DNA from: Eledone cirrhosa
Taxonomy: Eukaryota
NCBI GenBank assembly: GCA_964016885.1
Contig: OZ024752.1
Span: 41,540,001-41,604,000, forward strand
Length of the DNA: 64,000 nt
Direction: 5' to 3'
The position numbers and the translations under genes were made by a program. The notes under the pieces were generated by a model. It was not told where the DNA came from. It searched no databases and worked only from the letters and a program-made list of their open reading frames with translations. Of this stretch, positions 3,131-63,482 are shown piece after piece. The number at the start of each line of letters is the position of its first letter. Position 1 is the stretch's first letter.

Positions 3131-3445
3131 TTTCTCTGGGAGAAGAAGAAACAGAGGAACAGAAATTCCATATATATATATTGTAAAACGATATGAAAAT
3201 AGACTTGAGGCCATGTGTCCTTAGTATATATTTCTCGTGTGTATATACTGTATACAAGGTCTACCATAACAATTAACCTGCTTATAATTCCACAACAGTA
3301 ACAATGAAATTTACATGTGGAACATCAAAAACTAAAATGTAAACAATAATAAAGTCGGTATAAATGTTGTATTTTTTTTTATATGTTGCTATTGTATATA
3401 TGTGGCAACGATGATAAAATATGAAAGTAGTATATACATATATAC

Positions 3446-3580
3446 CTTGTCAGAGGAATTTCATTGACAGAAGAAAAACGAATGAAGACGTTAAAAATAT
3501 CGAATAGTGAAACTAAGAACTTCCGGGAGGAAAATGAATTATTGGATTTTCATTGGTGAATTTAGGTGATGACGTATAAA
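3446..3580 (-). promoter_or_regulatory. Putative non-coding first exon and promoter of ZNF paralogue 1
   Basis: Donor AAG|gtatat at 3446/3445, ETS-like CCGGAAGT (3519-3526), two CCAAT boxes (3541-3556). Homologous to 14283-14550. Confidence 0.55.
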
Positions 3581-4699
3581 ATAAATCAACTAAAAACTAA
3601 AGCATGTACTGTTGTACAATGTATACATAGTAGATTACTTATGAATGGAACGAACCCAGCGAGACGGAATTGCTCTTTTAGTGTATCTTTTAGTGTATCT
3701 TTCCACCATATCGCTTTCGCAGTTCTGCCTATGAAGCAACATCCATCTGATGTTTTGCAAAGAACATAAAATGGTTGTATTTGTCTTGCTAAATAAATGT
3801 GTCCGATCTTCGATTTCAGACTATGAGCTAGAGAATAAAATTAAGATGATTGTCCAATTTATATGTTAGAAATAAAGTGTTGTACTGAAGTTATAAACTT
3901 TATGTTTCTGTCGATATTAATATGTGGGATATAATGAAATATGGTATGGATTGTAGAGAGGAAAACAAAACAGGTGTAATGAAAGTATAAAGACATTTTT
4001 TCTTTGTTTTATTCAGATTCTTTTGTTTATCTTAGCGAATAGATTAAAACAAAGAAATGTATATAGAATGGCACATGTATACTATATATATATATGGTAA
4101 TTACATATTAATAGACACAATGGCAGATTCGAGAGAACTGATTTTACTGTAAAACATTGATTTATATTTTCAGCTCAATATAATAAAGACTGCTGTAGCT
4201 ATTTATTTACGTAGTTAATTATCAATCATCTATTTTCAATTCGACCCAGTGATATAAATGTTTATTGAATAATAGGAAACGAATAGAATTAAGGTAGATA
4301 CAACCATCAAGGGAAGTAACTCTATTTGATTCAACCGTCAGAGGAAGTAACTCTATTTGTAGTTTTAACTACATTTCTGTGGTAATGGCGGTGGGGGACT
4401 TATTTAATCAATTTAAACTTCTTATGTGGATTAATAATTGACAGAGAAAAACATGATTTAAAAATAGAGGAATTAGACAAAGTATTATTAACTAAAGACA
4501 TGGTTTTTAAAAAATAATTGAGAAAGAAACGTCTTAGCTCTCAGGAATCCATTATTAATGGTTCAAATTTTTATTTCTTGGTTTTTCTTATGGGGGTAAG
4601 AGTCATTTTACATGAATTTAACCATTACACCATATTGCATGTAGCTGCTAATTACTGTCTTTTGATGATACTACAAAAATTATATTTTCACCTACATAA

Positions 4700-5724: not shown

Positions 5725-8127
5725 CTATCCTGTATGAATACGTACATGTTTAGTTAAACTACTTAACTGTGAGAATGACTCCCCACAGATATCACAATGA
5801 TATTGTTTCGGAGGAGAGAAGGTATTTAGCTCTGTTAAAGATTTACCACTGATATCACATTCATTCGACATCTCTCCTGAATGAATGCTTTTATGTCGAG
5901 TTAATAGACAATTTTGAGAGAAAGATTTACCACAGATATCACATTGGTACGGCTTTTCTCCTGTATGAATGCGTTTATGTCTAGTAAGGACACTATTTAC
6001 AGTGAATGATTTACCACAGATATCACAGAGATATGGTTTCACCCCACTATGAATACGTTTGTGTCGAGTTAGGTCACGTTTTTCAGAGAAAGACTTACCA
6101 CAGATATCACATTGATGTGGTTTTTCTCCTGAATGCATACGCTTGTGTCGAGTTAGGTCACCATTTCCAGAAAAGGATTTCCCACAAATATCACAGTGAT
6201 ATGGTTTTTCTCCTGTATGAATACGTTTGTGAGTAGTTAAGTTAGCTTTATCAGAGAATGATTTACCACAGATATCGCAGTGAAAGGGTTTTTCTCCAGT
6301 ATGAGTTCGTTTGTGTCTAGTTAAATGAATATTTTCAATGAAGGATTTACCACAGGTATCACACTGATATGGTTTTTCTCCTGAATGAATACGTTTATGA
6401 TTATTTAGGACACTATTGACAAAGAATGATTTACCACAAATATCACAATGATATGGTTTCTCTACTGCATGAACACCTTTATGTTTAGTTAGATGACTTT
6501 TTTGGGAGAATGATTCACCACAAATATCACAGTGATACGGTTTCTCTCCAGTATGAATGCGTTTGTGAGCAGTTAGATCACATTTTTGAGTGAATGATTT
6601 CTTACAGACATCACAGTGATATGGTTTCTCACCTGTATGAATACGTATATGAGTAGTTAGATTAGTTTTTTGATAAAATGACTTCTTACAGACATCACAC
6701 TGATATGGTTTCTCTCCTGTATGATGGAGTTTGTGAGAAATTAGACTACATTTTTGAGAGAATGATTTATCACAGATATCACAGTGATATGGCTTCTTCC
6801 CTGTATGTAGAAGTGTGTGAGTATTTAGACTACTTTTTTGAGAGAATGATTTACCACAGATATCACAGTGGTATGGCTTCTGAGGAGAGAAGGTATTTAA
6901 CTCTGTGAAAGATTTACCATTGATATCACATTCATTCGACATCTCCCCTGAATGAATATTTTTATGTCGAGTTAATAGACAATTTTGAGAGAAAGATTTA
7001 CCACAGATATCGCAGTGGTACGGCTTTTCTCCTGTATGGATATGTTTGTGTCTAATAAGGACACTATTTACAGTGAATGATTTACCACAGATATCACAGA
7101 GATATGGTTTCACTCCAGCATGAATACGTTTGTGTCGAATTAGGTCACGTTTTTCAGAGAATGACTTACCACAGATATCACAGTGAAATGGTTTTTTCCC
7201 TGTATGCATACGCTTATGTCTAGTTAGGTCACCATTTAGAGTGAAGGATTTACCACAGATATGACAGTGATATGGTTTTTCTCCTGTATGAATACGTCTG
7301 TGATTATTTAAGTTTGCTTTATCAGAGAATGATTTACCACAGATATCACATTGAAATGGTTTTTCTCCTGTATGAGTACGTTTGTGTCTAATTAAATGAA
7401 TATTTTCGGTAAATGATTTCCCACAGACATCACAGTGACATAGTGTCTCTCCTGAATGAATACGTTTGTGTCTAGTTAAGACACTATTTACAAAGAACGA
7501 TTTACCACAAATATCACAATGATATGGTTTCTCTACTGCATGAACACCTTTGTGTTTAGTTAGATGACTTTTTTGGGAGAATGATTCACCACAAATATCA
7601 CAGTGATATGGTTTATCTCCAGTATGAGTGCGTTTGTGAGCAGTTAGATCACATTTTTGAGTGAATGATTTCTTACAGACATCACAGTGATATGGTTTCT
7701 CCCCTGTATGAATACGTATATGAGTAGTTAGATTAGTTTTTTGATAAAATGACTTCTTACAGACATCACACTGATATGGTTTCTCTCCTGTATGATGGAG
7801 TTTGTGAGTAATTAGACTACATTTTTGAGAAAATGACTTATCACAGACATCACAGTGATATGGCTTATTCCCTGTATGAATACGTTTGTGAGTAATTAAG
7901 CTACAATTCTGAGAGAATGATTTACCACAGACATCACAGTGGTATGGCTTCTTCCCTGTATGAATACGTTTGTGGGTAATTAAGCTACTTTTATGAAAGA
8001 ATGATTTACCACAGATATCACATTTGTGTGAAGTATTTCCTGCCTCTTCCTTTATATCTTCAGGAGAATCAATACTTTCAGGTTCTATTTTACATTTAAC
8101 CTGGGTTTCTCCTAAATCATGTTCCAT
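5725..8127 (-). CDS. Poly-C2H2 zinc-finger protein, 800 aa (26 intact and 2 degenerate fingers), single coding exon
   Basis: Tandem CxxC-x12-HxxxH units with TGEKPY linkers and no KRAB/BTB/SCAN domain. Candidate splice acceptor ttatttcag at 8343-8351 is conserved in paralogue 1 (854-862). Confidence 0.95.
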
Positions 8128-9529
8128 TATTTGTCTTCTATCACAAGATACAGATGTTTGTATTAACTGCTGCTATTAATCTCAGTCCAGAGGAAATATT
8201 TCACAGTAATTCTCCCATAGATTTATAGAAAACAGGATCATATCTGTTCTGTATAAAATCTTCTTTTAGTCTTTAAAAGATGATAAATATTGGTGATTGA
8301 TCTCAAGTAGACAATTCTGTTATGCCAATATCATCTGTTTCTCTGAAATAATAGGGAAACAATATAAGATATAGGGGATTGTTAAAAGGTAGAGATTCAA
8401 CAGTAAACATTTACTACATTTCTATATTGATAAACTGTGGATATAGACATTTGCTTGAACAACTGAACTTATCAACTTATCATTTTATGTTTGCTTTTCT
8501 TGCTGGCTTAAATTAGATGGGATATCACTGCCTGAGACTTGACTGGTCAGAGAATCACATCTGGCTCATATATTCCATCTTTAGCAAGGTTTCTATGGTT
8601 GGATGTCCATCTAACACGAACCACTAAACAGAGGGTACCAAAAGCATGTTGTGACATCAACACTAGAACCTTTCATGGTTTCTATGACTGGATGTCCATC
8701 CAACAACAACTGCTATACAGAGGGTACTACCATTATCATTTAATAAACATCCCTACATGGGTTGGACATGTCTTCACAGATTAAGTCAATATCAATATTT
8801 CGTTTGTGTTTATGTGACTAATTTTGATTTTCCTTCTGTAGATTTTACTCACTACATTCCAGCGACCATATCTGTATCAGTGAGCAGCTCAACTTTACCA
8901 GACTTAGACCAATTACTTCAATTGTCAAGTCAAGAGTACTCAAACTATACGGCCATATAAAAAGATCAACTCGTGGTGTGAGTATGTTATAACTGGAAGG
9001 AAAGCTGTCTGGTAAGAGAAGCAGAGGCAGGCAGCCAAAACGATGGCTTGACAATGTCAACTTATGGACTGGGCTTCATCTTTGCTCTTTAAACTCTGCT
9101 GCTAGTGATCCAACTTTGTAGAGAAGAATATCTCATATTGATGCGTAGTCTGCAACTGGCGGAGTTTAGCGTCACAAGAAGATTTTACTTAAATTTTAAT
9201 GAAACCCTAAAATAGGATTATGCCCAACATCGATCATACGCATGCACAGGAAAATGAATGATTTATTATGAAAGAAAATTTATTATCAAAGGAAATGAAA
9301 CATGAAACCAAAAATAACTAACTTAGGCACTACAACGCTATTAGCTGTCAGTCGAAGCAGGCGATGAAAGCAAAACATTGTTTATTTCCGTATTACTACC
9401 ACGTGTAAGTGGAGTTACTTAAATGAAAATATATGTGGCCCTGAAAAGGGCCAAATTAGAATATACCGCTGCGTTTTTACAGTTTTACTAGTTACACATA
9501 CACACACACACATATATATATATATACAC

Positions 9530-9607
9530 ACGCTGTCCCCTCCAAAATATAGACACACTTTGATTACTTTGCTGTTGAAGTGTGTATACATTTTTTGGGA
9601 CACTGTT
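9530..9607. mobile_element. Short Tc1/mariner-type MITE in (TA)n
   Basis: Imperfect TIRs tgtcccctccaaaatatagacacactt / aagtgtgtatacattttttgggacactg. Confidence 0.45.
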
Positions 9608-9609
9608 TG

Positions 9610-9669
<60 letters not shown>

Positions 9670-10138
9670 GGGAAGGGAGAAATTTTTGGATGCTATACCT
9701 GACATAATAAAAAACCCAAATACACCCCTAACATTTGTCGGAATATCAATCACGAGAGTAGATAAATAAATATATAAATACATAAATAAGAAATGATAGA
9801 AAAGGAAAAGAAAATCCCTACATTATGTAATATTCCCAGTCACCCCTAAATTTTCCCTAAATTTCAAACCGAGAGGGAAAAGTCCGAGGGTTAAAATCCC
9901 AAATGATGGTACCTCAAATACTAGTGTATCCCTTCGCATTACAGTTTAAAGCAATACATATGATCGCTTTGATGACTCTTATTCGTTTCTAAGGGTCTCG
10001 TTTTTTTCTCTTCTTTCTATCATATATATATATATATATATAAATGAAGTAATTCCGTCGGAAAAGTCCAGGAAAAAAGAGTGCTCTATGTAGGTAACAG
10101 AGCTTAATAGTTATGTAAAAAACAACATAAGGCAATTA

Positions 10139-10198
10139 TTCCATTTACCAGTGGTTTCTTAAAAGCAAAAGATTTTGCTTTCAATCCTCAGAATGAAA
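10139..10198 (-). ncRNA. Type I hammerhead ribozyme motif (left arm; sense to the ZNF pre-mRNA)
   Basis: Inverted copy of 10211-10270. One difference converts a stem II G-C pair to G-U. Cleavage predicted after 10146. Confidence 0.78.
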
Positions 10199-10210
10199 AA
10201 ATCCGGATTT

Positions 10211-10270
10211 TTTCATTCTGAGGATTGAAAGCAAAATCTTTTGCTTTCAAGAAACCACTGGTAAATGGAA
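10211..10270 (+). ncRNA. Type I hammerhead ribozyme motif (right arm of palindrome)
   Basis: tttcatt-CTGAGGA-TTGAAAGCAAAA tc TTTTGCTTTCAA-GAAA-CCA c TGG-TA^aatggaa. Full core, long stem II, stem III, GUA cleavage after 10263, 7-bp stem I with one G-U pair. Confidence 0.8.
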
Positions 10271-10780
10271 TAATTGCCTTATGTTGTTTATTACATAAAT
10301 ATATATATACATATATATATATATATACATATATATAAAAAACATGAGAAGAAAGAAGAATACTGCAGGTTGCACATGGGTTACATATGATAAAATTAGT
10401 CCTTCGTCAGTGATTTGCCAACCATCATTGATATTTCGTCGCATTAAAAATCATATATCTCAGGTTGGTGCGAGCAATAACTAAAAAAAGCTATTGGGAC
10501 AAGTAAATCGCATAAAGCGAGTGAGACAAGTAAACAACATAGAAGGATGAAAGCAACACAAAGATGGGAATAAACAAGCTATATATATATATAACAAAGG
10601 AAATGTGGTAAGGAACCAGGTGGACCATAACGCACCAAAGTACTCAATACTTAGGGTAGTAGAGTGGGTAATAGGAACAAGTAAGACCCCGACGACTGAG
10701 TTCAAGCCGTTTCGACGGCTAATTCGTACAGAATTAGCCGTCGAAACGGCTTGAGCTCGGTCGTCGGGGTCTTACTTGTT

Positions 10781-10820
<40 letters not shown>

Positions 10821-11879
10821 TAAATCTTTCCCTCTGTCTATCTCTTTCCCTCTCTGTCTATCTTTTGCCATAAAAACGATAATGATAATCAATTCAATTA
10901 AGAAATATATATATATATTATTAGTATTATTATTAAAATTAAATACCATTTATTCTGCGACAGAGAGCTTCATCTTCTCCATCATTCGCTACTCCAGAAT
11001 AGTAGTACTAGTCGTTATTGTATGTGTGTGTTTCTGCGTATATATATATATATGTGGTGTGTATGTGTTTGTGTGTATATGTATATATGTTTGCGTCGCC
11101 ACTCTTGCCCTTCGTGAGGAGAATGCTGTGTACGTATGTATATATATGTGTGTGTATGTGTGTGCTTGGAATATTTACCAATGGTTGGTATATCGATGAA
11201 CCTCTGATAGGTTTATACAGAATTAATGGATCTCGTATCGGTTCCTTTCGTTCGATCACCAAGAACTACCCACACATTTGAATTTATAATGTAAATGGTT
11301 AAATGTTTCACAAACACTTGTACTCCCTTACTTTAACATACCCCTCCCCCATATACACATACTATGTGGGCACTCAGTTTGCTAGAAATAACAGCCAATT
11401 CTTTCCACCCACCTTAAAAAAAAATATTAAGAAAGAACACAATGTCCAATAATGTACTTATTAGATGCACCTAAAACGATGGGATGGTCGTGGCTGGAAT
11501 ACCGTTGATCATAATGGAATTCTGTGGTTTAGTCAAGATTGACCTAGGGCTAAACAACAACCTTTGCCCCTCAGGTGAAGGGGCCTTACTATCATGGAAC
11601 GGAAATATTGTGATGGGACCCGACTTTTCCCCGCCCCCTCGGTCTAACCCCGCAGGTACAGTCGAGTCCGCTTAAGAGTATACCCTCGGGAATGGAAAAT
11701 ATTAACCGAACTATATACTCTTATCTGGACTAAGTAAAAATATTCCACAGTATTATTATTTTGAGTCTTTCAATGATTAATAATCGCTTTATTATCATTT
11801 AAAATGCAAGTCAACAAAACTCTCTTGCAACATTGTAGAGTGAATGTAAAATTTTATAAGCTTCAGCTTTGAAAAACTA

Positions 11880-12650
11880 CTCTCACCATTTTCCATCGAT
11901 ACTGGATATGACATGATAATTGCCACATTTGTCCTTGCCGTCCTTTCCTTTATGGAGAATTACCATGAGCGCATCCTTCTTGTGGGACATTCTCATCTTC
12001 CCACACCATTTTCATGAGGTCAGTCAGGCGCTGCATGAAGTTTTCACCACCACACTTCAAAACCGCTCCACTCAGACCATCCATACCAGGAGACTTACCA
12101 CAGTTCAGCTTATGCACAACAGAAGACCCCTCTGCAAGAGAAGATACATTAGCCATCTCATATGCTTCACTGGTTCAATAGGAATGGAACAAATGAAATC
12201 ATCATCAACCTGGTTTAAGAGCTCATCAAAGTGATCTCTCTATCTGTTGAGTGTCTTTTGGGTCACGCAGTAATTGCTTGCCATCTTTCGATCTCAAAGA
12301 GGCCACTGGAGAGCTGAAAGGGCCATACACCTCTGTGAGTAGAAAGTGCGGCAGTTTCACATTGTTGCCGTCAGATGCCACTTGAACTTCATCTGCTTTG
12401 TTGCTCCACCAGGTATTTTGCATAGCCCTGAGTTTCACCTGCACTTCCTTCTTTACCTGTCTGTAATGCTCATAATTGTCACCAACAGAGCTACCACCTT
12501 TAAGAACTGCATCAAGTGCCTTTTGTTTTCTGTCTAGCAGAGCCTTGACCTCCTGGTCATTCTCATCAAACCAGTCCTTGTTTTCTTGTGACAAAGCCAA
12601 GGACCTCTGCTGAAGCCTCATAGACCGAGCTCCTGAAGTCCTTCCAGTTG
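11880..12650 (-). mobile_element. RTE-clade LINE ORF fragment, degenerate
   Basis: DWFDENDQEVKALLDRKQKA...LRSKDG..LL and GKSPGMDG..GAVLKCGGE motifs; frameshifts. Confidence 0.8.
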
Positions 12651-13369
12651 TTCTCATACACGCATACATACTTACATATATACATACATGCATACATACA
12701 TACATGTATACACACATACATACATCCATCCATACGTGTATACATACATACAATGGTTAAAGTGTTTGACTGACGACCATAAGTTCATGGGTTCATATTT
12801 GGGACCGGGTAGTTATTGAATCAACCTGATATCAATGTTTATTATACAGCACACTTCCTCTTTGGTTTAATATGACACATAGTAATATCTAACATAGTAC
12901 CCATCTAATCTGTTATAATATGATTTACCTTTCCTCTGTGAAGGCACATGCCTTAGGGGTTACGGTACTGGACTAACCATTATAAAGTCATGGGCTCGTT
13001 TCTTCGATCCTGCAGCATGTTGCGTCCTTCAGTAAAATACTTTAGTTCGTGTAGCATCTTCTACCAGGACTTGCGGCAGACAGATAATATCAGTAATGGA
13101 AAAAACCTTGTTTCATTAGTATGACCTGGAAATCAGTTCCACTCTATTTATCTTCTTTATTAAAGGCAATCAAATTATTTTTTATTTTATTCTTTTTCTT
13201 ATTTTTTCCATGTTTGTTAAATAAATTCCAAAAAATCGAACTAAATTGAAATTTTGTAATAAAATTTCCATAAAAGTTAATGTTTACAATACAATAAAAT
13301 GTAATAAAATGTATTGAAGTCGACGAAATGTGAACCTTCATTTTTGAAAGATGGATAATGCTATAAGCA

Positions 13370-13615
13370 GACCTTACAATATTGTACCACAATTTTCCTT
13401 TGTGCAAAAGTGGGCAGCCGAATTTAGGAAAGGATAGGGGATTCTTGAAGATGACCCAATGTCTGGACGTCCTACAACTGCCACTACCGAGGAAAACATT
13501 GATCTCAGTACTGCAACACCGATGGAAGAAGTGTGTGGAACGCAAGGGAGACTATGTTGAAAAATAAACCTCATTTGGTCGCATTCCATGAGAGTATCTT
13601 TGTCAACCCTCGTAT
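13370..13615 (+). mobile_element. Internally deleted mariner element (related relic at about 37200-37490)
   Basis: VQKWAAEF...EDDPMSGRPTTATTEENID fused to LQHRWKKCVERKGDYVEK*, followed by a subterminal sequence shared with about 37430-37470. Confidence 0.8.
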
Positions 13616-13651
13616 CTATGCACAATATACGTAAAGATACAGAATTGCGGA

Positions 13652-14014
13652 CACTACAACGCTATTAGCTGTCATATTTGTTGGTGAAAAAAATTTGATT
13701 ATAAAACTTAAATTTATGAATGACTTGTTTTCTACATTGATAACCATGGCTTGTTTTCTAATTTGGCCCTTTTAAGGGCTACCTATATTTTCATTTAAGT
13801 AACTCCACTTACATCGATATGCTTTATAACCATGACTTGTTTTCTATTTGTTTTCTAATTTGGCCCTTTTAAGTCTTCCCTCTCTCTCTTAAAAAAAGAA
13901 AAACGCGTGAAAACTCCACTTACGCGTGGTAGTAATACGGAAATAAACGATGTTGACGAGTGACGCCCCCTTCGCCTGTTTTCCACTGGACTGACAGCTA
14001 ATAGCGTTGTAGTG
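13652..14014. mobile_element. MITE with perfect 23-bp TIRs starting CACTA
   Basis: cactacaacgctattagctgtca (13652) / tgacagctaatagcgttgtagtg (14014); inverted partial copy at 9314-9460. Confidence 0.65.
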
Positions 14015-14326
14015 CCCTAAATTAGTTATGGATCAGCCCTATGTAGATTCAGTTTTTTGTATGAGTTTATATAAATAAATCAGGGAATGCTCACTTTTTC
14101 TTCACCTTTAATTACATTTTACGATTATTGCCGATTACGGGGCCAATTATTATAAATTTTACTTACAGAAATGTATGTGATCTTAAAACGAAAAATTAAG
14201 TTAATCGGACTATATATATATAATTTATTTTGAAAATGTTCTGTCGCCGACAAGTCGGAATTACTAGAGATGTATCTATTGTTTGTATGTGGACATAATG
14301 ATAAAGTATTAAAGTTGTATATATAC

Positions 14327-14550
14327 CTTTTCAGTAGATCTTCGTAGACAAAAAAAAAACACACAGCTTCACAATTTAATAAATTATATAAAACTGAAAA
14401 AACAATTAAACAGTCCAATTTTTTGAATGGTAATCATTAATTTAAATACAGATGTAAGTAAAATGAAAAATTTATATTTCTGGAATAAAAACAAGGCAGA
14501 GGAAAACGAATTATTGAATTTTCATTGGTTACTTGAGGTCACGTGATAAG
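14327..14550 (-). promoter_or_regulatory. Putative non-coding first exon and promoter of the 800-aa ZNF gene (intron about 8343-14326)
   Basis: Donor AAG|gtatat at 14327/14326 with intron flank homologous to 3395-3445. gaaaacgaattattgaattttcattgg (about 14502-14528) matches gaaaatgaattattggattttcattgg (about 3530-3556). E-box CACGTG at about 14540. Confidence 0.55.
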
Positions 14551-14624
14551 ATGTAAAGCAACAATGAAGGTAGGGGGGTCAGTAAAAAAATCCGGCTGCT
14601 ATGGATCATTTATTTATTACATAC

Positions 14625-15838: not shown

Positions 15839-15885
<47 letters not shown>

Positions 15886-18194
15886 AATATGTATGACCCC
15901 GACGGCAGAGCTCGAGCCGTTTCGACGGCTATTTCTGGACTATAAATAGCCGTCGAAACGGACTTCCAATGGAAATGTTCGGATCACAGAGAACATTTTC
16001 CTTACCTAGGACAAAAGTCCCGGGAACGGCAAAATATATTGTCATCTGCCAGCTAGCATAGGATCGATATAATTTCAAGGTACATGGCTCAGTAGTTAGA
16101 GTGTTGGGTGTGCAATCATGGGGTTGGGAGTTTGATTCACAGACCAGGCAATGTGTTGTACCCTTGCTTTAGTTTACTTAGCTGTAGGAATAAGTTGCGA
16201 CGTTATTGGTGCCAAGCTGTATCAGTCTTTGTCTTTCCCTTGGACAAGACCAGTGGCATGATGAGGGAAGACTGGTATGCTGTCTTCTATAGACAACCTT
16301 GTGCCTCAGAAGGGGAACTTTTTACGTGCAAATCCCATGGTCATTTGTAACCGGAGGAGGTCTATATAGTATAATTATGGTGGGTTATTGTGTATTAAAG
16401 GAGCATAGTGTTGTAGTTCAGTTATGTGTGAGTGCTATATATGTGAAGGCGCATAGCTTAGTGGTTAAGGTATTCGGATCAAGGTCATAAGTTTGATTTC
16501 CATCTGTGCATTGTGTCCTTGAGCAAGATGCTTTATTTGACGTTGCTCCAGTCTACATAAGCCATCATAGAGCCAGACTTCTAAACACACCTTTGTCTAG
16601 CTTTACTATATTAAACTATCAGTTTTAGTTGTATTTTTTTCTGGTGTTTTTTTTTTTTTTTTTTTTTTAAATAATTGAACTCCATTGATATTTCACTGGC
16701 ATGATTTTTAATATATATTATCGTGCGTGTGTGTGTGTGTGTGTGTTATTTTTTTATATTAATTAAATGAATAAAAAATGTTCCTTTTGAGAGGGGGGGG
16801 GGGGGCAATAAGAAAAAGTACCAGTCAAGTACTGGGGTTAATTTTTCCTCTATATCTCTTTCTTACTTTCTTTCTCTATGCTTCTTTGTAGGAAATCTGC
16901 TGCGTTCAGACGAGGTTTTAAAATGCCCTAGAAACGCTGTATGCCATTACAGCACCCCTACGACTCCATCAGGAATTACGAGACCATACAATACGACATT
17001 ACTTTTTATATTAAAGAGGGTCGGACGCCATGCTTTCCAGCATAGTTACGTCCCTTTACGATCCGAGTTCAAATCCCGCCGAAGTTGACTTTGCCTTTCA
17101 TCCTTACGGGGTCGATAAAATAAAAGTACCAGTAATGCACTGGGTATTTGCTGGCCTTGTGCCTAAAGTAGAAACAATTACTTTTATAATTAAAGAAATA
17201 AAAATATTTTTTAGCAAAAAGTTTTCTTTACTTCTTTGTATTTGACTCGAGTAAATTTTAAAGGATTTATGCCTGTGTATTTACATACCTAAAAACATCA
17301 GGTTTCTACTGCTTTTTCTGTGCTACCTTGTCCCAGACGACCTATCGAAAATACAGTATTTTTCTGTCGATAAGTTACCTCCCTTATGCTATCCTTTTGT
17401 TTTTCTCAGTATACGTGACTTATCTCCCTTAAGAAAATTTTTTTACCAGACCTCGTTCAGCATACAAATTATAAAGATATTAGATTTATGCAAGTTAATT
17501 TCACCTAGTAGTATAGTAGCCGTGATGTAGGGGAGGTGCATTGCCAACTGTACAGTGGCTGTTGGGATTAAGCAAGCTAGCTTTGTCTTTGCCCGAGTTC
17601 ATATCTCCTTTTTTCTTTTCTATTTTAAAAGAAAATTATTTTTTCATACCTGAGTTATCTCCTTTGATTAACTAGCTGTTTACTTACCAGTGCGACAATA
17701 CTCATTCTATCCATTCTTTTTTGACGAAAGTCTATTTATATTTCCCTCCTTCCGACGTCACCATTTACACAACTTATCTGCACTCAATTCTGTTCCACTT
17801 CTAGTCATAAGACTTTTAATAATTTTTTTTTTATGTATTCGTTTTGCTGTCCCCACAGTAGACACGAAGCCTGCCTCTTACTTACGTCCATGCACTCTAC
17901 TGATAAGCCAGTTGCTTGCGAATTGCTTACACACAATCCCACACACTACCAAGTGTGTTTTATCATAATACCAGAACTAAAGAAACTATTACGTCAGTTA
18001 AGAAGACTACATCATCAGTCGGCATACAGGAGTTACCATGGAGTTCCAGTTTAAAATTCTTCAGTGATGGCCTGAAGGACAATTATAAACAGAAGGAGAC
18101 TTAGGACTGAGCTCTTGTAAACCCTTACCTGCTCTACAGCTCAATCATTCTACTCATGGGCTGCCTCCTCTCACCGTCACTGTTCAACACATCA

Positions 18195-27039: not shown

Positions 27040-30000
27040 TGATTTCTACTATGGGCACAAGCCAAGTAATTTGGGGGAAAGGGAAAGTCGATTAAATCGA
27101 TCCCAGTACGTTACTGGTGCTTTATTTTATCGACCCCATAGAATGAAAGGCAAAGCTAACTTTGGTGGGATTTGAACTCAGAACATAAAGGGATGTAACT
27201 ATTGGTTATTTTTGTTAGTTGCACATAGTTTTTTTTCACAAAAAAATTTTGTAATTAAAGAATTATTAACCCTTTACCATTTACATTGCTCTATCATCAT
27301 CATCATCATCATTTTACGTCCGCTTTTCCCTGCTTGCAAGGGTGGGACGGGAACTGATGCTGGCTTCATTTCTACAGCTGGATGCCCTTCCTAACACCAA
27401 CCTCATTTACAGTGAGTGCTGGGTGCTTTTTTGCCGTGGCACCTCCACGACCACTTTGCAGTGGAATGATAGGTATCCCAGTCCCTATCATCTCATTTCT
27501 ACAGCTGAGTAAACTGGAGCAATGTGAAATAAAGTGTCTTGCTCAAGGAAACAACACATCACCCAGTCTGAGAATTGAACTCACAACCTTTCGATTGCAA
27601 GGCCAATGCTCTAACTACTAAGCCATGTGCCTCCATATTTACTATTATATTTTCATGGTAAAGGCTTTACCTCACAATATCAAATCTAAGAGATTTTGAT
27701 ATTATTTATGTTGAAAACAATAACTTAATATTAGTATGAGCAACCGGTTACAGCCAGTTTGAACAGAAAGAGGTGAGAGAATTCTGGCCGGATACAGCTG
27801 GCTTAAATGCTAAAGGGTGAAAGGTTTTGTACCCTTTTTATATATAGAATACTACAATTAACTGTCATCTTTGATGGCATGGGGCCAGTTAGTATCAATA
27901 TAATCTATAGGAATATATATATATATATATAAACATAGTTACCTCTAATATATTTTTCCTTTCATATGGTGACTCTCCATTGTTCCTTGTAACTACAGCA
28001 TCTAACATTTCAAAACATTTATCACAAACTCTATTTAGTTTGTTATCATCGTACAATAGAGGAAGTTTTCGAGATGAACATTTTCCACACACGACCTGAA
28101 ACAACAAAAACAACATTGAGGTTTTTTATATTTTTCAATTTTTTTTATATGATCATTATATTTTTAAAATCAATTTTAATCAAATACATTTGCAGTATTA
28201 GAGTAAAGACTTTAACATTTAACCCTTTAGCATTTACATTACTCAATATTTACTATTGTATTTTCACAGTAAAGGTTTTATCTCACATACTATCTTACAT
28301 AATTATCTCACATAATACTGAATCTTCGAGATTTTGATATTATTTATTTTGAGAACAATACCTTAACATAAGTATGAGCTGTTGGTTATTGCTGGTTTGA
28401 ACAGAAAGAGGTGAGAGAATTCTGGCCAGATAAGACCGGTTTAAATGCTAAAGGGTTAATGTGATGCAGTTATAGTGTTGTTCTATAATTTTCAGTAATG
28501 CAGCTTCATGTGGTACAGGATGTTGGGAGTTAAACAGAAATCGTAAAATCCATACTTACATAACCACAGGCCCGGCAGTGATGTCTGCGGCGGAAAGTGG
28601 TAAACTGGTTGCTACAGAGCATACACATACTTGCAGCATCATCTTTAACCCATCGAGGTGCCCGTTTGCCCACATCATCATCCTGGCATAACATAAAGAA
28701 GAAGTATAATTACAAATATTAGCATTTCATTCTTCTTCCTTTTGTCATTTAAGACAGTAAGGTGTTGCTATTTCTAGCATATCTAAAGATAATGTAGAGG
28801 CTCCATCATCGGGTCTATAAACATTAGCATTTCATTCTTTCCCCTCCAATATTTAACCCTTTTGATACCCAGAACCACCTTTGGCTCTATGAAACAAAAA
28901 AACAACCATTTTAAAGGATTTCTATTTATATTAAAATCTTCCAACATAATTTTATATAAGAGTTATATGTTAAGTTACTATCTTAGTCATGAAATAAATA
29001 ATGAATTTAGTAAAATTCCCACCAAAATTCTTCATTAATTCATTGAAATAGTGTATTTCATTAAATTTACAAAAAAAAAAAAAATAACAATAAATAAATA
29101 ATAATAAATAAATAAACAATTCTAGTGAAACTTAACCTTTATCATTTACATTACTCTATATATACTATTATATTTTCATGGTAAAAGATCTACCTCACAT
29201 AATTATCTCACATAATATCGAATCTATGAAATTTTGAGATTATTTATTTGGAAGAACAATACCTTAATATCAGTATGATTGGCTGGTTACGGTTGGTTTA
29301 AACAGAAAGAGGTGAGAGAATTCTGGCCAGATACGGCCGGTTTAAATGCTAAAAGGTTAAACCAACATACCTCTTCAATGTACATTTTCTGTGCTTGTTC
29401 TATGGTTCGCATTGATTGTTTGCGATTACTGAAGTCATCAATTGTCATTTTCATAATCTGGAAGGAAACAAACACACACGTGTGATCACGATGATGATGA
29501 TGATGGTGATAATAGTAAATGAGGCACATGGCTTAGTGGTTAGAGCATTGGGCTTGCAATCGAAAGGTTGTGAGTTCAATTCTCAGACAGGGTGATGTGT
29601 TGTTTCCTTGAGCAAGACACTTTATTTCACATTGCTCCAGTTTACTCAGCTGTAGAAATGAGATGATAGGGACTGGGGTCCCTATCATTCCACTGCAAAG
29701 TGGTCGTGGAGGTGCCACGGCAAAAAAAAAAGCACCCAGCACTCACAGTAAATGAGGTTGGTGTTAGGAAGGGCATCCAGCTGTAGAAATCAAGCCAGCA
29801 TCAGTTCCCGTCCCACCCTTGCAAGCAGGGAAAAAGCGGACGTAAAATGAAATGATGATGCTGATGATTGGTGGTGGTGGTGGTGATGGTGGTGATGGTA
29901 GTGATGATAATGATGATGGTGATGGTAGTAGTGATAGTAATACTGATGAACATGAAATGAGGCAAAAATGTTCCGTTGGATGTGCAGTGTAAATGTGCAT

Positions 30001-35377: not shown

Positions 35378-35620
35378 CCCATGTTCAACCGGGGGTAACC
35401 GCAGTAAGTAAGGTACTCAATACATAGCAGAGTATAACTGTTCAATATAGAAATGGCTTCTACAGGACTAGACCTGTTTCATTCAAAGAATATAATCAGG
35501 AAAGCTTTCCTGATAATTTCCTTTGAAGGAAACAGTTCTAGTCCTGTAGAAGCCATTTCTATATTAAATATAAATATATATATATGTAATATATTGTTTA
35601 ACCTTATATTACTTTCCACA

Positions 35621-44142: not shown

Positions 44143-44800
44143 TATGCACACAAACACATATTCAACTATATACATATATCTATATATCTAATATAAGCAA
44201 TTCAAAAAAAAAGGGATGACAAGAAAGCAAGTCAGTACAAAAATTAACATAGTTATTAAGAATGGGTGGCAGTGGAAATGGGTTAGACTAACCTTTTAAT
44301 AATAACTCATAACGAGGAACTCTTTGGATTGGTTCCAACATGTGATGTTGTAAGGTTAAATTGGCACAGTCAGGGCGTTGCTGTAATAACACAACATATC
44401 AACAGAATATATAACATATCACAACATATAAATAATAGAGTAAAGAAAGAAAATATTCCAAAATATGAAAACAGCATAGAAATGGTAAAATGGTAAAATG
44501 GTAAAAATTGTAAACCCCCAACACCACTCACATACAGACACATACAGACACATATATACACACACATGTACTGTACTATATGCATGTACTCACATGCATA
44601 TAGTACATGTACACATGCATGCACATAAACACACATACAAATACATGTGAGTGAGAGATATTTATTTGAACTATATACACACACACACACACATATATAT
44701 ATATAGGAACAAGTAAGACCCCGACGGCTGAGCTCAAGCCGTTTCGACGGCTAATTTTGGTGCGTTATGGTCCACCTGGTTCCTTACCACATTTCCTTCG

Positions 44801-44831
<31 letters not shown>

Positions 44832-62473: not shown

Positions 62474-62518
62474 ATTGCCCTGATGAGTCCTTAATAGGAC
62501 GAAACATTGTCGGCTAAT
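62474..62518 (+). ncRNA. Minimal type I hammerhead ribozyme (Penelope-like)
   Basis: attgcc-CTGATGA-GTCC ttaata GGAC-GAAA-CA t TG-TC^ggctaat. Canonical core, G10.1-C11.1, GUC cleavage after 62511, AATAAA immediately downstream, embedded in (TA)n. Confidence 0.82.
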
Positions 62519-63482
62519 AAAGACTTTTGATGTATTGAAGGCTTCTTTGTTTTACTCTCTTAATATATATATATGTATATGTGTCAAGGAAATATATATA
62601 TATATATATACACACACGGGATAACAAATTATCGTTATAGGTAGTCCACTTAGGTGTAGTCCAGTTAGAGTACTCCGAGTAGGGGATAGTATCAACACTT
62701 GGCTAAGTTTGACTCAACAAGGCGTTTCCATAGTGATGCTGCGAGTACGCGGTGATTTCTAAGTAGTTTATACTTGGAGTAATGATAAATCAAGAAAGAA
62801 GAGTGACATGGTTTGCTACACAATAAGGGCTTTATTCACATTGCTGACAATTGTTTCTCTGAACTGGTAGGTCTAGAGATCGCTACCCGCCTGTTTCTGC
62901 ATCAATCGATCACCAGGCGGGTAGCGATCTCTAGACCTAGCAGTTCAGAGAAACAATTGTCAGCAATGTGATTAAAGCCCTTATTGCATAGCAAACCGTG
63001 TCACTCTTCTTTCTTGATATATATATATGGAGGCACATGGCTTAATGGTTAGAGCATTGGCCTTGCAATCGAAAGGTTGTGAGTTCAATTCTGATGTGTT
63101 GTTTCCTTGAGCAAGGCACTTTATTTCACATTGCTCCAGTTTACTCAACTGTAGAAATGAGATGATAGGGACTGGGGTTCATATCATTCCACTGCAAAGT
63201 GGTCGTGGAGGTGCCACAGCAAAAAAGCACCCAGCACTCACTGTAAATGAGGTTGGCGTTAGGAAGGGCATCCAGCTGTAGAAATCAAGCCAGAATCAGT
63301 TCCCGTCCCACCCTTGCAAGCAGGGAAAAGTGGACATAAAATGAAATGATGATGATGATGATGATATATATATATAAAAACCCGGAGAGCAAATATTTAT
63401 TCACGTTTAGGGTGAAAGCAACGATTCTTTGCTTAAACTTTAATCTGTTATTTTAATAAATAAATAAATATATAGAGAGAGA

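Follow-up and report, generated by a model that had tools for sequence, protein, structure and literature searches.

A hammerhead-bearing palindrome in a predicted zinc-finger gene intron of Eledone cirrhosa: a probable fold-back end piece of a Hydra-clade Penelope-like element

The palindrome at positions 10111-10298 of the window, which is the whole 64,000-nucleotide stretch of the Eledone cirrhosa genome analysed here (assembly GCA_964016885.1, contig OZ024752.1, positions 41,540,001 to 41,604,000), is with high confidence a short terminal fragment of a Penelope-like element (PLE) of the Hydra clade, comprised of a tailed copy and an inverted tail-less copy between TA repeats. It likely represents one recent insertion, and self-cutting is predicted to be impossible, given that every transcript would fold into a hairpin of 94 bp. 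In its position within a predicted intron of a C2H2 zinc-finger (ZNF) gene, the insertion is likely neutral and not an editing-controlled switch. The features of the region are as follows.

5725-8127, minus strand: 800-aa C2H2 zinc-finger ORF (host gene).
8343-14326, minus strand: predicted intron 1 (5' UTR) of the ZNF gene, approximately 6.0 kb, containing the insertion; donor and acceptor are common to four tandem paralogs.
10022-10041, no strand: (TA)n target, left flank.
10042-10204, minus strand: long arm, which is the main copy, 5'-truncated, of the terminal repeat (hammerhead and tail) of the Hydra-clade PLE; its identity to the 5' UTR of the ORF-bearing locus L061 is 167 of 168 nt and, as in other palindromes, this arm extends to yardstick position 160.
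10042-10110, minus strand: tail extension present on one arm only, its outer end merging into (TA)n.
10139-10198, minus strand: type I hammerhead in the predicted ZNF sense orientation, with its core at 10191-10185 and cleavage predicted after 10146.
10201-10208, no strand: inversion junction without a spacer; the element has a short quasi-palindrome at this place, where turns recur, as judged from the turn points of the listed tight palindromes.
10205-10298, plus strand: short arm, the inverted tail-less copy; its end is ambiguous to 10302 against (TA)n.
10211-10270, plus strand: type I hammerhead; core 10218-10224, stem II 10226-10249, stem III 10254-10262, predicted cut after 10263.
10299-10336, no strand: (TA)n target, right flank.

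The two arms (10111-10204 and 10205-10298, 94 nt each) are mismatched only at 10161/10248 and 10119/10290, and their complementarity is lost outward from 10110/10299. The hairpin has a folding energy of -135.8 kcal/mol (z -29.7) and none of 200 shuffles was as stable, which bears out the near-perfect palindrome with two mismatches described in the first-pass annotation. The extent given there, 10111-10298, holds for the palindrome itself; the element is larger, with the minus-strand arm extending approximately 69 nt further as a tail (to ~10042) and the plus arm directly abutting (TA)n, which borders the insertion on both sides. Each arm carries one substitution compared with the usual family state, and the divergence of the window copy from the family is approximately 1%.

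A second palindrome, belonging to another repeat family, lies 370 bp away at 10671-10785 (long arm to ~10590, minus strand) and displays the same layout of one tailed arm, one short arm and (TA)n flanks; no hammerhead was found in it. Its repeat family yielded 486 candidates, with an inverted partner in 25 of the 40 scored, and further pieces were noted with this family at ~15880-15961 and ~44672-44815 of the window. Three more long hairpins in the window (62789-63018, 35444-35565 and 1848-1946, with arms of 105, 61 and 46 nt) are probably further fold-back repeats, and a tRNA-like Rfam match just over the cut-off at 29529-29586 (plus strand), repeated near 63030-63095, probably corresponds to the head of a tRNA-derived SINE.

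Each arm contains, in order, CUGAGGA (at 10218 on the plus and 10191 on the minus strand), stem II, GAAA, ACCA-C-UGGU, GUA and a 7-bp stem I. The proposal of one complete type I hammerhead per arm is thus confirmed on both strands at the level of the core motifs (CUGANGA, GAAA and UH), and the identity is further backed by the covariation described below. Stem II comprises 11 bp in the folds, while the 12 bp suggested earlier as its upper length would leave a loop of 2 nt. The centre of stem III is a single nucleotide, so that a monomer can form only 3 bp, and the 9-mer alone stayed unfolded; two GUA arms cofold at minimum energy as a classical double hammerhead, and any single transcript carries just one hammerhead. 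PLE hammerheads are expected to act as dimers, according to the accessible parts of three reports (PMC4209133, PMC6765202, PMC6155905). The G-U pair in stem II, previously read as a mismatch that keeps the pairing, is the usual state of the family, and it is the plus arm that departs from it; it is therefore no sign of selection on the window copy. The comparison with Rfam that had been recommended returned no hammerhead at gathering score across the window and none among 50 matches at E≤10 between 9900 and 11000, these matches being generic hairpin families under their cut-offs. Elsewhere in the window (62480-62515, plus strand), another PLE family is represented by a minimal hammerhead that has the standard G10.1-C11.1 pair and lies between (TA)n tracts.

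Comparison of family copies supports the hammerhead identity through covariation, self-cleavage being a prediction from sequence. In an alignment of 25 copies, many of which were found via a pattern requiring the hammerhead core, 91% of the cells are paired in the proposed structure, compared with 34-52% in slid controls. Two-sided changes occur in nine of the 22 pairs (six in stem II, three in stem I and none in stem III), and covariation on three measures was higher than in any of the 500 shuffles; on another measure (further pair types) the shuffles were not surpassed. RNAalifold recovered stem II unaided; stems I and III were not recovered. When 47 distinct copies were chosen irrespective of the core, it was kept in 43 (up to two substitutions allowed), and position N7 is occupied by G in 29 copies, U in 11 and A in seven.

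It had also been noted that U10.1-A11.1 replaces the usual G-C pair. G10.1-C11.1 is indeed absent, and U-A is not a maintained pair: positions 10.1 and 11.1 are paired in eight of the 25 copies and unpaired in 17, a nearly fixed A being faced by U, C or A. Work by Lunse et al. on dimeric PLE hammerhead variants may already cover the 10.1 variant. We rejected the pair as a novelty, given its presence in only these eight copies and since Hydra hammerheads without G-C have already been tabulated; in the accessible part of the published table, four of the eight non-Chlamys rows show U.U, Hydra-1_oBim has an extra G followed by A-U, and three show G-C, with the stem III of Hydra-1_oBim likewise of the ACCA-N-UGGU type. 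The minimal type I hammerheads of PLEs, as presented in the available text of Cervera and de la Pena 2014 (PMC4209133), share with the present family the long helix II, the palindromic helix III, the dimer architecture and copy numbers of thousands per genome, but have a highly conserved G10.1-C11.1, which is replaced here by N.A with N being U, C or A. A distant subfamily with approximately 75% identity (L055:783-880, minus strand; L070:2600-2740, plus strand) keeps the core and GUA; its stem I is rewired, its stem II is longer, and positions 10.1-11.1 are A.G.

The repeat family is abundant. Exact matches to a 23-mer of the arm, taken from downstream of the cut site, number 4,482 in the genome (control: 0), and sister subfamilies in which the core is followed by a base different from U account for 3,629 additional pattern matches, some of them double-counted; a search with one arm gave 804 candidates, 40 of which were scored. 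In the first 100 places listed for the 23-mer, pairs no more than 400 bp apart comprised 12 in head-to-head, one in tail-to-tail and one in direct orientation, and extrapolation from one contig gives roughly 500 head-to-head pairs genome-wide. Palindromes with a spacer of at most 30 nt number 84 in the genome. By eye, the turn point of the window palindrome recurs in 20 of the first 50 listed, 19 having a 1-nt spacer and one having none. We inspected 20 palindrome loci, consisting of these 20 same-junction loci minus one, plus one other. Fifteen of them resemble the window in having an arm that ends at yardstick positions 97-101 and a second that ends at 160; in the remaining five, one arm is broken off. 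Most arm ends adjoin (TA)n, as do those in the window. The arms of one locus carry common subfamily variants, and these variants differ between loci, which indicates that the palindrome is rebuilt at each insertion, by several subfamilies separately.

This pattern bears on whether the palindrome could itself be mobile and spread as one unit, in the manner of a MITE or retrozyme. The junction common to 19 of the 50 listed tight palindromes speaks for such a unit; however, the same-junction loci derive from different subfamilies with variants matching within and not between loci, the centres of the other palindromes differ, the arms are asymmetric, and open parent ORFs exist, all of which makes spreading as a whole very improbable. 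Retrozymes have in common with the present copies that they are short, non-coding and hammerhead-bearing, but they possess direct LTRs, 4-bp target site duplications, a PBS and a PPT (PMC6765202, in the part accessible), while the copies described here are inverted, tailed and part of an autonomous PLE. Identity with retrozymes was excluded based on the inversion, the tail and the parent ORF.

The PLE origin proposed in the first-pass annotation is supported by the long arm, whose sequence runs in L061 into a PLE ORF, continuing to an ATG located approximately 265 nt after the hammerhead core, as well as by Hydra-clade motifs. The genome-wide search for linkage of the arm to an ORF encoding a reverse transcriptase (RT) and GIY-YIG domain, which that annotation had called for, was successful (L061, L243 and L244). 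The parent element has a single ORF of approximately 710 aa encoding an RT plus GIY-YIG at the C-terminus; the open frames of L243 and L244 (715 and 714 codons, respectively) carry YRDDG and VVY...YVG. An N-terminal piece of the ORF gave 151 matches among 150 scored candidates, and stop-free frames of at least 700 codons were seen by eye in 24 of the 150 listed copies, which marks the PLE family as young. The layout of the window insertion is found in complete form in L243, which measures approximately 4.9 kb from 5' UTR to tail; the order there is an inverted short arm, the 5' UTR with hammerhead, the 715-codon frame, a GUG hammerhead copy, approximately 1.8 kb of microsatellite-rich DNA, the terminal hammerhead and the tail.

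The parent protein displays RWK, DKT in place of DKG, a CxCX5C linker, and CxxC and CxH in the endonuclease, and by reading of its sequence CCHH is absent. The available text of PMC8557442 lists for Hydra-clade PLEs these same features (RWK, DKT, CxCX5C, CxxC, CxH and no CCHH), a (TA)n target and a length generally under 3 kb, a length that L243 exceeds due to its long microsatellite-rich 3' region. Pfam gave no family on three ORF fragments, a PDB sequence search returned nothing useful, and a homolog search, with 1,193 relatives among 7,999 scored, was uninformative on the clade. Based on the motifs and the likeness to published Hydra proteins, the parent is classified as a putative Hydra-clade PLE. 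In the portion of Craig et al. 2021 (PMC8557442) at hand, the nearest known element is Hydra-1_Obim of Octopus bimaculoides, whose N-terminus is alike by eye. The family shares with Hydra-clade C-terminal EN+ PLEs the single ORF of ~710 aa, the protein motifs listed above and (TA)n, and with the Hydra-1_Obim type the ACCA-N-UGGU stem III and the lack of a plain G10.1-C11.1 closing. It is a putatively distinct family from Hydra-1_Obim. Compared with the published Hydra-clade elements, its stem II is longer (11 bp), GUA takes the place of GUU, another hammerhead copy (GUG) lies approximately 350-550 nt past the ORF end, and the unit measures approximately 4.5-5 kb, the published figure being under 3 kb.

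This diverged GUG copy was found 3' of every ORF end examined (L243:4800-4860; L062, L067, L069 and others), where it precedes the terminal GUA copy by 0.9-2.7 kb; its core is kept, its stem II is weakened, and its pattern has 408 exact matches genome-wide. Hammerheads with NUG at the cleavage site are not known to be cut. A role for the GUG copy as dimer helper was rejected, as the GUG+GUA minimum-energy cofold shows no double hammerhead while GUA+GUA does. The microsatellite-rich stretch between the hammerhead copies (L016:400-1445; 3' region of L243) ends in a pyrimidine tract and AG, approximately 118 nt before the cut, and looks like a retained intron, as in Penelope. The inverted arm of L017 begins exactly at this AG boundary.

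We examined the insertion ends in relation to the predicted cut site. Out of 58 copies of the ORF start, 23 pass the 400-nt yardstick, eight begin between there and the cut, and 27 begin scattered downstream, such that 31 span or reach the cut site, and one starts within 3 nt of it. Genome-wide, 42 breaks were located at most 2 nt from the cut, compared with 17 and 20 at a pair of control sites lying 10 nt from it, a raw excess of 2-2.5-fold that becomes approximately 1.4-2-fold after a rough correction for pattern leniency; two of 30 inspected breaks lay exactly at the cut. Hammerhead cleavage as the process that sets the 5' end of inserted copies is unsupported by these counts. The low number of ends at the cut site fits uncleaved RNA as the template together with two RT start sites, as described in the accessible part of Frangieh et al. 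2024 (PMC11167929), where the two sites explain the tail.

A one-sided tail with an inverted 5'-truncated copy was found in the window, in 15 of the 20 tight palindromes and in L243. PLE insertions of this form, with a tail of 30-40 nt, are described in the available portions of bioRxiv 10.1101/2021.04.23.441226 and Craig et al. 2021. The published insertion unit and the window insertion have in common a tailed arm, an inverted tail-less arm and two 3' end points; they differ in the tail, which measures ~62-69 nt here, and in that both copies are cut down here to the hammerhead region. The GIY-YIG endonuclease of the element would nick (TA)n, and the RT would copy uncleaved element RNA from two internal start points approximately 62 nt apart, one per target end, as for the anole PAc in vitro. 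Both cDNAs would stop early and may be joined head to head at the short stretch of self-complementarity immediately 5' of the hammerhead, which would be carried along because it adjoins the RT start points.

The host gene is one of four tandem ZNF paralogs, all of which have in common the donor (14327/14326) and the acceptor (8343/8342) on the minus strand. The previously proposed location of the insertion in intron 1 is supported by these comparative splice sites of the four paralogs, placing it in a predicted 6-kb 5' UTR intron. A promoter-like block is found upstream of the four tandem genes (window 14450-14590, minus strand; L150; L151; window 3400-3600), and contains what we take to be E-box-like and CCAAT words. 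The element sequence has no match in the three paralog introns.

The first-pass annotation had further claimed that a transcript of either strand makes the antisense arm first, so that the hairpin masks the ribozyme, and that the element is self-silenced and could be unmasked by ADAR editing. The masking agrees with the fold models, in which adopting the hammerhead fold would cost 76-79 kcal/mol in the whole palindrome (78.5 on the minus and 76.5 on the plus strand), compared with 2.2-2.3 kcal/mol in an isolated arm. The unmasking would amount to a switch in which editing melts the hairpin, the hammerhead folds and ZNF intron 1 is cut. The 94-bp near-perfect hairpin in a predicted intron and the intact core in both arms favour it, as does the role of young inverted repeats as main ADAR targets in animals stated in the accessible text of PMC9989829. 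The editing models, which are equilibrium folds with proxies for inosine, argue against it: with all 36 As of the antisense arm edited and none elsewhere, the hammerhead fold of the minus-strand transcript would still be disfavoured by 58.7 (I as G) or 28.1 kcal/mol (I unpairable). The five As of the hammerhead core are essential. Random editing at 50% gave a lowest cost of 17.4 kcal/mol and spared these As in two of 40 trials, and editing at 75% gave 11.3 kcal/mol and spared them in none of 40. Complete editing of the antisense arm thus frees the fold in neither model, and random editing strikes the core As. In addition, stem III requires a second copy as dimer partner, which a transcript with a single hammerhead does not offer, hundreds of like palindromes are expected genome-wide, and the insertion is missing from the paralog introns. 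We consider an ADAR-gated switch to be extremely improbable. A literature search, with most subscription papers and bioRxiv supplements outside its range, found neither a cephalopod hammerhead palindrome nor an ADAR-gated natural hammerhead. On the reading of a neutral PLE insertion, the hairpin in the pre-mRNA would likely be an ADAR substrate without switch function and would be removed with the intron; its editing would plausibly reflect the ordinary targeting of young inverted repeats (PMC9989829, as far as accessible).

The host could also have co-opted the PLE by-product, either as a hairpin that yields small RNAs directed at the element or to alter how ZNF is spliced. Long perfect intronic hairpins can be diced or edited, and a second PLE-type palindrome lies 370 bp away, both of which count for such a use; weighed against the lack of conservation evidence, the ~1% divergence from the family and the absence from the paralogs, it has very little likelihood.

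Another reading concerns the function of the hammerhead within the family. A hammerhead devoid of G10.1-C11.1 could cut as a dimer, opening cap-independent translation of the ORF approximately 220 nt downstream and not setting the end of the copied RNA, with the fixed GUG copy as an uncleavable helper and the head-to-head palindromes as a source of dsRNA that damps the family. This reading, whose translation idea borrows from the accessible part of PMC13725137, seems unlikely, and the GUG+GUA cofold result speaks against its helper part.

An ADAR switch, if true, would newly link editing to ribozyme activity, and the evidence presented here is against it. The single locus is of little weight, being one among an estimated several hundred fold-back PLE stumps. 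Seen via its commonest by-product, the repeat is a new family of a known kind of element. Its hammerhead is a natural variant for asking whether G10.1-C11.1 is needed, and, the family being a young Hydra-clade PLE of high copy number in which many ORFs are open, its insertion ends offer a natural means of testing the two-start-site model beyond the Poseidon clade.
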